64,000 bases of DNA, from assembly GCA_964016885.1 (NCBI GenBank), contig OZ024743.1:377518001-377582000 (forward strand), given 5' to 3'. This document shows, piece after piece, positions 34,068-34,290 of this stretch. The stretch comes from Eledone cirrhosa. Taxonomy: Eukaryota. How positions within the stretch are numbered: the stretch's first letter is position 1; every line of letters starts with the position of its first letter. The position numbers were made by a program, and so were the translations under genes. The notes beneath the pieces are model-generated. The model was given only the letters and a program-made list of their open reading frames with translations, did no database searches and had not been told where the DNA came from.

Positions 34068-34290
34068 ATAGAAGTGGTTACACAACAGTTAGTTCACCAT
34101 ACTGAGAACAATTGTTTCACCTTAGCGGATCCTCAGCTCGTAATGAACCCTTACGAGCTGAGGATCCGCTAAGGTGAAACAATTGTTCTCGGTATGATGA
34201 ACTAACTGTTGTGTAACCACTTCTACCTAACTCGTTCCATGGACTGAGTGCTCTACCACTACGGATATTACCTTCCAGTATTCTACCACT
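34068..34290. mobile_element. Foldback mini-element with two hammerheads (same family as 7922-8126)
   Basis: Arms 34068-34143 / 34151-34225. CGAG-CTGAGGA-TCCGCTAAGGT-GAAAC-AATT-GTT-CTC occurs on both strands. Tail at 34226-34290. Confidence 0.8.

Follow-up and report, generated by a model that had tools for sequence, protein, structure and literature searches.

Insertions in which an inverted, 5'-truncated pLTR lies head to head with the element and a tail is present at one end only have been described for EN+ PLEs, among them D. virilis Penelope and Adineta Pen2a (PMC3846280, PMC8557442, PMC2377424). The origin of such inverted copies and one-sided tails has been called open (PMC8557442, PMC11167929), and the one printed model that we found explains them by self-priming on antisense RNA (PMC3846280). 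Penelope transcripts start in the upstream pLTR (PMC2377424). The in vitro account of PAc, a Poseidon element of Anolis, reports that the PLE protein, a predicted dimer, cuts and extends both strands of an AT-rich target and starts reverse transcription at two internal RNA sites bounding the tail, that the products shorten with 5' truncation of the template and that ribozyme cleavage is unnecessary for the reaction (PMC11167929). Within the C-terminal-EN PLEs, the Hydra clade is described as having elements below 3 kb, DKT, CxCx5C and CxxC/CxH motifs, a hammerhead and a (TA)n target (PMC8557442). In Schistosoma, opposite-strand pairs of minimal hammerheads 100-700 bp apart have been ascribed to truncated PLEs, and minimal PLE hammerheads are reported to need dimers and to cleave poorly (PMC4209133). 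Non-LTR retrozymes are non-coding, pLTR-derived direct tandem repeats (150-450 bp) with type I hammerheads that give circular RNA (PMC7229834; bioRxiv 10.64898/2026.07.22.740005). In L1, capped full-length insertions are marked by an extra G (PMC11702581).

Here we analyze a hairpin in a window of 64,000 nt from Eledone cirrhosa (GCA_964016885.1, contig OZ024743.1, positions 377,518,001 to 377,582,000), the window being the whole stretch of DNA studied, together with its relatives in the 3.0-Gb genome. This focal hairpin represents a ~2.55-kb Hydra-type PLE in its shortest inserted form and is one of thousands of head-to-head PLE stubs; it is a known kind of structure in extreme, stereotyped form, and its junctions make the open mechanism testable. 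The head-to-head inverted copy, one-end tail, partial tandems and microsatellite target of the EN+ PLE insertions described in the passages cited above are all found in the long members here. The whole focal insertion, however, is only ~220 bp without an ORF, its tail is 65 nt rather than 30-40 nt long, inner ends in its family cluster at a single base and often carry an untemplated G, and the data favor two sense-templated cDNAs over the published antisense self-priming. As in PAc, two internal reverse transcription starts and the cutting and extension of both strands of an AT-rich target would be involved, whereas PAc belongs to a different clade and, in the account given, its two products were not joined and inverted copies were left unexplained (PMC11167929). 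The Schistosoma pairs resemble the present copies in having minimal type I cores in mirror image, each with palindromic loop III; they carry G10.1-C11.1 where stem II here has U-U, and the passages that deal with them hold no junction analysis or mechanism (PMC4209133). The non-coding, pLTR-derived short copies (minis) likewise resemble retrozymes, from which they differ as single inverted pairs with variable centers, and the likeness to capped L1 would lie in a cap copied as G.

We propose that the focal element would be a dead-end insertion of a Hydra-type PLE, made from two cDNAs copied off a capped 5' leader and joined head to head. From sequence comparison, we give this reading a probability of about 0.7.

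Results

The focal hairpin and other foldbacks in the window

A preliminary description of this DNA had noted a palindrome of ~160 bp with a one-sided tail of ~65 nt. Both features stand: 34069-34225 consists of 75-nt arms with 2 mismatches around a 7-nt loop (157 bp), the tail adjoins a single arm, and (TA)n lies at both sides (Table 1). The tail-less arm matches its template up to 34145, or up to 34148 if one mismatch is allowed, and the two terminal C of the junction loop are possibly a cap mark. A signal peptidase subunit gene exon lies at 33294-33599 on the minus strand (Pfam SPC22, E 4e-6), and the focal element, ~520 nt 5' of the ATG of this exon, would be in its promoter or a 5' intron. 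An ultra-short family-B remnant (33998-34062; 20-nt arm plus cut tail) adjoins the focal element, which landed in the TA at its end. At E<=0.1, Rfam returned no hammerhead family for the focal element, only weak miRNA-hairpin matches.

Table 1. Coordinates of the focal element (first eight lines) and of related copies in the window
Feature	Coordinates	Strand	Remarks
Left (TA)n target remnant	34061..34070	.	sequence
Tail-less arm, inverted PLE leader/pLTR copy	34069..34143	-	from fixed outer site X (34069) inward
Minus-strand type I minimal hammerhead core	34103..34140	-	stem I down to 3 bp via C>T at 34103
Junction loop	34144..34150	.	last two C untemplated
Tail-bearing arm	34151..34225	+	starts at -74, one base inside the inferred RNA start (peak -75)
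Plus-strand type I minimal hammerhead core	34154..34191	+	4-bp stem I; palindromic loop III; predicted cut 34187/34188
65-nt tail between two fixed outer ends	34226..34290	+	in tandem copies extends into 5' UTR/ORF
Right target repeat (AT)53	34291..34396	.	sequence
Family-A mini, older subfamily	7924..8127	-	tail left; asymmetric center; one complete core (8056-8094 +)
Family-A tail-less ~560-nt arm	8262..8820	-	GIY-YIG C-terminus; hammerhead 8289-8328 (-)
Family-B mini	10822..11012	-	tail left
Family-B mini	57590..57758	-	tail left; center within stem II

The second copy reported at 7922-8126 is homologous to the focal copy (83% over 219 nt) and has a different center, as had been stated; C3-U4 is absent from its tail-bearing arm. 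The arm had also been identified as the 3' terminus of the GIY-YIG PLE at 8261-8820. This PLE, whose GIY-YIG C-terminus is 82% identical to that of a long copy, is indeed of the same family (91-95% over 61-69 nt), but the arm is not solely a 3' end: in tandem copies the tail continues into the 5' UTR and ORF, so that arm plus tail forms the 5' leader of the element as well as its 3' end.

Recurrence of the same architecture had been claimed at five further places, and foldbacks are present at 10822-11012, 57590-57755, 20521-20942 and 35561-39931. The fifth, 3041-3195, has a single arm without an inverted partner, and only its flanking TA runs are inverted; it is a solo piece of another PLE family found in long form at 15567-18284, with 1,015-nt inverted arms (99%) and a hammerhead on each strand. 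The foldback at 35562-39931 has a hammerhead at 35680-35739 (+), and its right arm is interrupted by an LTR retrotransposon whose LTRs are 99% identical. Other repeats form foldbacks centered on TA runs at 23603-23732 and 49150-49440, in which no hammerhead was seen and Rfam gave weak miRNA matches. A further Hydra-type family has an almost intact ORF at 51272-53732 (-), for which Pfam gave no match.

The parent element

Derivation of the focal family (family A) from an element with a reverse transcriptase and GIY-YIG ORF is borne out by L066 and L068, in which the unit measures ~2.55 kb from X to X and holds a single ORF, below 3 kb as in the Hydra clade. The translations, read by eye and taken from copies whose ORFs are broken by frameshifts, contain DKT, a CxCx5C linker and CxxC plus CxH around a conserved E and N, with no CCHH. 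They carry RWR where the Hydra clade has RWK, and the likeness to that clade, including the hammerhead and the (TA)n target, is one of motifs, not of a tree (PMC8557442). A Pfam search with three Hydra-type proteins gave no match. Partial tandems forming pLTRs occur in L066, L068 and 30 tandem loci. Insertion ends fall within dinucleotide repeats in 21/22 and 20/22 cases, in keeping with insertion into (TA)n, and for this reason a target-site duplication is unreadable.

Outer ends are constant and centers vary

The tail-less end motif has 1,981 matches genome-wide against 0 for a reversed control, and is thus not due to chance. The first 90 of these 1,981 places, less the local duplicates L038 and L044, form an unbiased set of 88 loci, 44 of which were found by the search to have a partner arm with a tail. 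Arm lengths run as a continuum from 24 to more than 1,500 nt, and the outer ends are constant at X and +65. In tail number, the exceptions are L023, with two tails, and L207 and L213, with none (rare symmetric insertions).

The preliminary description had left two alternatives, a stereotyped abortive PLE integration product and a retrozyme-like non-autonomous class, and had proposed that fixed centers with shared diagnostic SNPs would indicate self-propagating elements. A junction search yielded 200 loci with a center at most 16 nt above the hammerhead. Among the 50 of these that were listed, 41 distinct junctions were counted by eye and seven junction types are recurrent; three copies with an identical untemplated junction differ in their private variants. 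The variable junctions and differing private variants indicate that the minis arise independently. The first alternative is hence the one supported, except that two separate cDNAs running off an RNA end fit the data better than the early template switch it invoked.

The second alternative, that the minis are copied from their own transcripts as a self-propagating, non-autonomous class, finds its best argument in the focal copy and L009. The two are 0.96 Mb apart with unrelated flanks, carry a common rare tail allele and have the same 7-nt loop, a word present in only 3 genomic loci, in opposite orientation relative to the tail; a reversed loop with a shared tail allele is what a palindrome re-copied from two starts would be expected to give. 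They are a possible daughter pair, yet ectopic gene conversion explains them equally well. Apart from this pair, no descent of minis from one another was found. The recurrence of the seven junction types is also consistent with self-propagation, but recurrent junctions are expected from microhomology or from two capped ends, most of the listed junctions are distinct, and the trio with one junction carries different private variants. Furthermore, no direct tandem array of the retrozyme type was seen among the minis, copies of minis would lack the promoter, and both cores would be buried in the hairpin. We therefore regard this explanation as highly improbable.

A probable origin of the two arms as separate cDNAs from one template

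Arms were compared in 42 two-armed copies, with L036 and L078 left out as rearranged and two arm lengths corrected by hand; four copies with an almost tail-only partner had been missed by the search. A difference of more than 20 nt favors the tail-less arm in 7 and the tail-bearing arm in 12, and in 23 the arms are of similar length; since either arm can be the longer one, neither is always a copy of the other. The arms are nonetheless matched: (i) both carry the same subfamily allele at 443/460 sites, against 56% in shuffled pairs, (ii) rare variants are present in both arms in 13/94 cases against 0.25 expected (44/64 minis usable), and (iii) 26 pairs are short-short, 15 long-long and 1 mixed (Fisher 1.6e-10, n=42). 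Gene conversion after insertion could account for the shared variants, and subfamilies active at different times for the matching of subfamilies, but neither would give the pairing of short arms with short arms. Short arms with long partners do exist (L086, L227 and L240). Arms of mixed subfamily, considered as proof of two different RNAs, were not found. The arms of the family have diverged by ~2.4% each. Junctions overlap by at least 1 nt in 28/37, a figure inflated by local alignment; some palindromes are perfect, with zero loop, and some junctions show an untemplated base on each arm.

Alternatively, one cDNA might fold back and copy itself, or antisense RNA might prime itself as in the published model (PMC3846280), and palindromic junctions have been interpreted in this manner in print. 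The agreement of the arms in subfamily and in rare variants fits this, as does the use of stem I complementarity at some junctions (L057, L069 and L090). Sequence present in one arm and absent from the other, in either direction (7 and 12 of 42), is on the contrary not what self-copying produces and largely refutes it. Zero-loop perfect palindromes, untemplated bases on both arms of one junction, a fixed stop of the tail-less arm that copy-back leaves unexplained and an extra G marking the 5' end of the sense strand (see below) likewise speak against it, and we consider a fold-back origin quite improbable.

Inner ends pile up at one base, often with an extra untemplated G

Of the tail-less arms in the unbiased set of 88, 34 stop at 69-97 nt from X. 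The end rate there is 2.08 per 100 nt at risk, compared with 0.35 and 0.10 on either side (6 to 20 times), with p 2e-14 and no match in 5,000 flat simulations. The modal end by allele-aware mapping is position -75, an A located 7 nt above the hammerhead core within a word that we take to be initiator (Inr)-like. Family A ends spread out to -98, and in the focal copy they fall at -74 and -76/-79 instead of -75. The first untemplated base in the antisense strand is C (sense G) in 22/30 arms at -75 against 17/57 elsewhere (Fisher 2e-4), and in 13/18 without the loci chosen for that end; a further 21 arms with this end were not counted, being microhomology or blunt joins, and pattern played a part in the choice of the junction sets. 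Only 2/55 read-through arms have that base at the next position. Arms with a tail, arms without one and solo arms all show the untemplated base, and it can be present on both arms of a copy.

No TATA box is present 30 nt above -75 in family A, only the Inr-like word. The near full-length tandem copies begin at -86 to -98 in 3/30 and at -75 in 0/30, indicating that long copies derive mostly from longer RNAs. In L076 and L095, three arms of a second subfamily end at -79 with an untemplated base, which suggests a start site of its own. At L184:300-380 and L194:300-380, the word formed by G plus the start is restarted repeatedly in tandem, as if reverse transcription had jumped to a fresh template. 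In the center of L240, the A-rich end of an ORF fragment precedes a capped-type arm in the same orientation, possibly a template jump from the cap to the 3' end of another RNA.

Three other accounts of the pile-up were discarded. A start near -97, beneath a palindrome that is presumably NRF1-like, was dropped once allele-aware mapping had put the peak at -75; conservation of the palindrome is 0.935, against 0.92-0.96 in its neighbors. Microhomology strength is not the cause, since ends are scarce at the 10-bp palindromes near -42 and -125. A splice acceptor at stem I like that of D. virilis is contradicted by the lack of a YAG and by junction fillers that, by eye, are unlike the upstream exon.

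The raw reads bear on whether these palindromes are real. Fold-back joints of the family, which leave the arm at 34144 and so coincide with the pile-up position, are present in raw reads of two other samples, one of them with CC inserted, whereas none of the reads or contigs listed spans the focal loop itself. It could be argued that the palindromes are assembly artefacts, or that they are long inverted insertions collapsed by central deletion, and long palindromes are known to be unstable. Neither version accounts for the solo arms L055, L095, L232 and L368, which stop in the same zone with the same untemplated base, nor for fixed outer ends, diverged arms and family joints in raw reads of other samples; we hold such an explanation to be the least credible of those considered.

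Replication in family B

Family B, represented in the window by the minis at 10822 and 57590, has 28,397 genome matches to its arm motif. Among the first 100 of them, convergent pairs lie 40-76 nt apart in 17/19 cases, and ~4,290 family-B minis have their center within 14 nt between the two cores. A whole family-B parent was not found; an ORF fragment beside one family-B arm looks Hydra-like. In 12/18 long arms a TATA box stands 36 nt above the core (TATA having served as a filter for read-through arms), and it was visible by eye in 11/11 arms of a separate long-arm set. In 2,284 arms the match to the template ends with the A at TATA+30, and antisense C is next in 76 of the first 100 of these by hand count. 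On reading 30 TATA+30 loci, 26 were scored as ends; by eye, an untemplated C follows in 13 of these and a different untemplated base in 3, and the partner or the target accounts for the remainder. Two bases further up, ends were scored in 1/30, in a control set dominated by another subfamily allele.

Position relative to the TATA box bears on a further possibility, namely that the two cDNAs stop either at a roadblock on the 5' strand of stem I (structure or protein) or where a processed RNA ends without a cap, C being added by terminal transfer. The pile-up does lie at the 5' edge of stem I in both families, family A is without a TATA box at the expected distance, and tandem copies do not start at the pile-up. 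Besides, since addition of C by reverse transcriptase can occur wherever it runs off a template, the C is firmer evidence for an RNA 5' end or a hard stop than for a cap. However, family B stops exactly at TATA+30 and hardly two bases further up, the excess of C is position-specific, and a leaky roadblock predicts many short-long pairs where 1 in 42 was seen. A stop of this kind is, in our view, unlikely.

Hammerhead cores

A complete hammerhead had been reported on each strand of the focal hairpin. Catalytic cores are present on both, but stem I has 4 bp on the plus strand and 3 bp on the minus strand, the distal part of stem I is missing, and the minus-strand core failed the motif scan. The core boxes, stems I-III and palindromic loop III of the minimal type I core are found in both families; in family B, two stem I variants keep pairing and stem II loops vary. 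The plus-strand core has a 2-bp stem II flanked by U-U, and motif-scan matches of both families have U-U instead of G10.1-C11.1 (one scan pattern required U-U), which may be a trait of the Hydra clade.

It had also been suggested that transcripts from either direction would contain a ribozyme in competition with a long hairpin. The whole element is predicted to fold on either strand as one 75-bp hairpin (-142 kcal/mol). The predicted probability of stem I is 0 for a single arm as well as for the whole element, so that folding does not discriminate for occlusion. As the arms start at the inferred RNA start, the minis would be without an upstream promoter, and a function of this kind is not favored. 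The hammerhead cores are read as truncated passengers that would be buried in the predicted hairpin. A pile-up at the ribozyme cut was examined and set aside: ends fall at the predicted cut in 12/30 (193 matches) and one base on in 10/30 (161 matches), and the resulting estimates of ~77 and 54 ends are not clearly different. At a single locus, L310/L311, both arms of a perfect palindrome end exactly at the predicted cut.

Discussion

Altogether, we favor an origin of these hairpins from two cDNAs that end at the start of a capped leader. Both cut ends of a (TA)n target would prime reverse transcription on a short capped leader RNA, with X and the tail end as the probable start sites. If the RNA began at -75, cDNAs of at most 75 and at most 140 nt would be obtained from the two starts in its 5' repeat, and both would run off the RNA start, in which case the pile-up would correspond to the transcription start and the G to a copied cap. 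One RNA molecule, or one source locus, would serve both arms. Joining of the cDNAs by microhomology or blunt end-joining would then leave arm, loop, arm and tail between TA ends, and if the enzyme instead began at the downstream (3') repeat of a long RNA, the long inverted-pLTR insertions already known would result. L1 twin priming, with two primers on one RNA and joining by microhomology, is analogous; here, however, the second start would be fixed 65 nt from the first, and the outcome is an inverted duplication, not an inversion.

In the literature covered, mostly open papers, PLE minis that are cap-terminated or twin-primed do not seem to have been described. The minis constitute an in vivo record pointing to two sense-templated cDNAs that end at a capped start, and the proposed origin predicts start sites to the base, at -75 in family A and at TATA+30 in family B. 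Such PLE hairpins also score as miRNA precursors, which calls for caution in the annotation of the latter.

It is tempting to go further, although we think it doubtful, and to suppose that PLEs integrate as a dimer copying one capped RNA twice from two fixed sites, so that every insertion would be born head to head and the genome would hold a CAGE-like fossil map of germ-line PLE starts; minis within read-through transcripts would occasionally be re-copied, with the loop flipped via a heteroduplex (the focal copy and L009 would be such a case), and would be the seed of a palindromic non-autonomous class. Independently of this extension, synthesis of two cDNAs from a capped leader would explain the frequent mirror-image hammerhead pairs of animal genomes without any ribozyme function.
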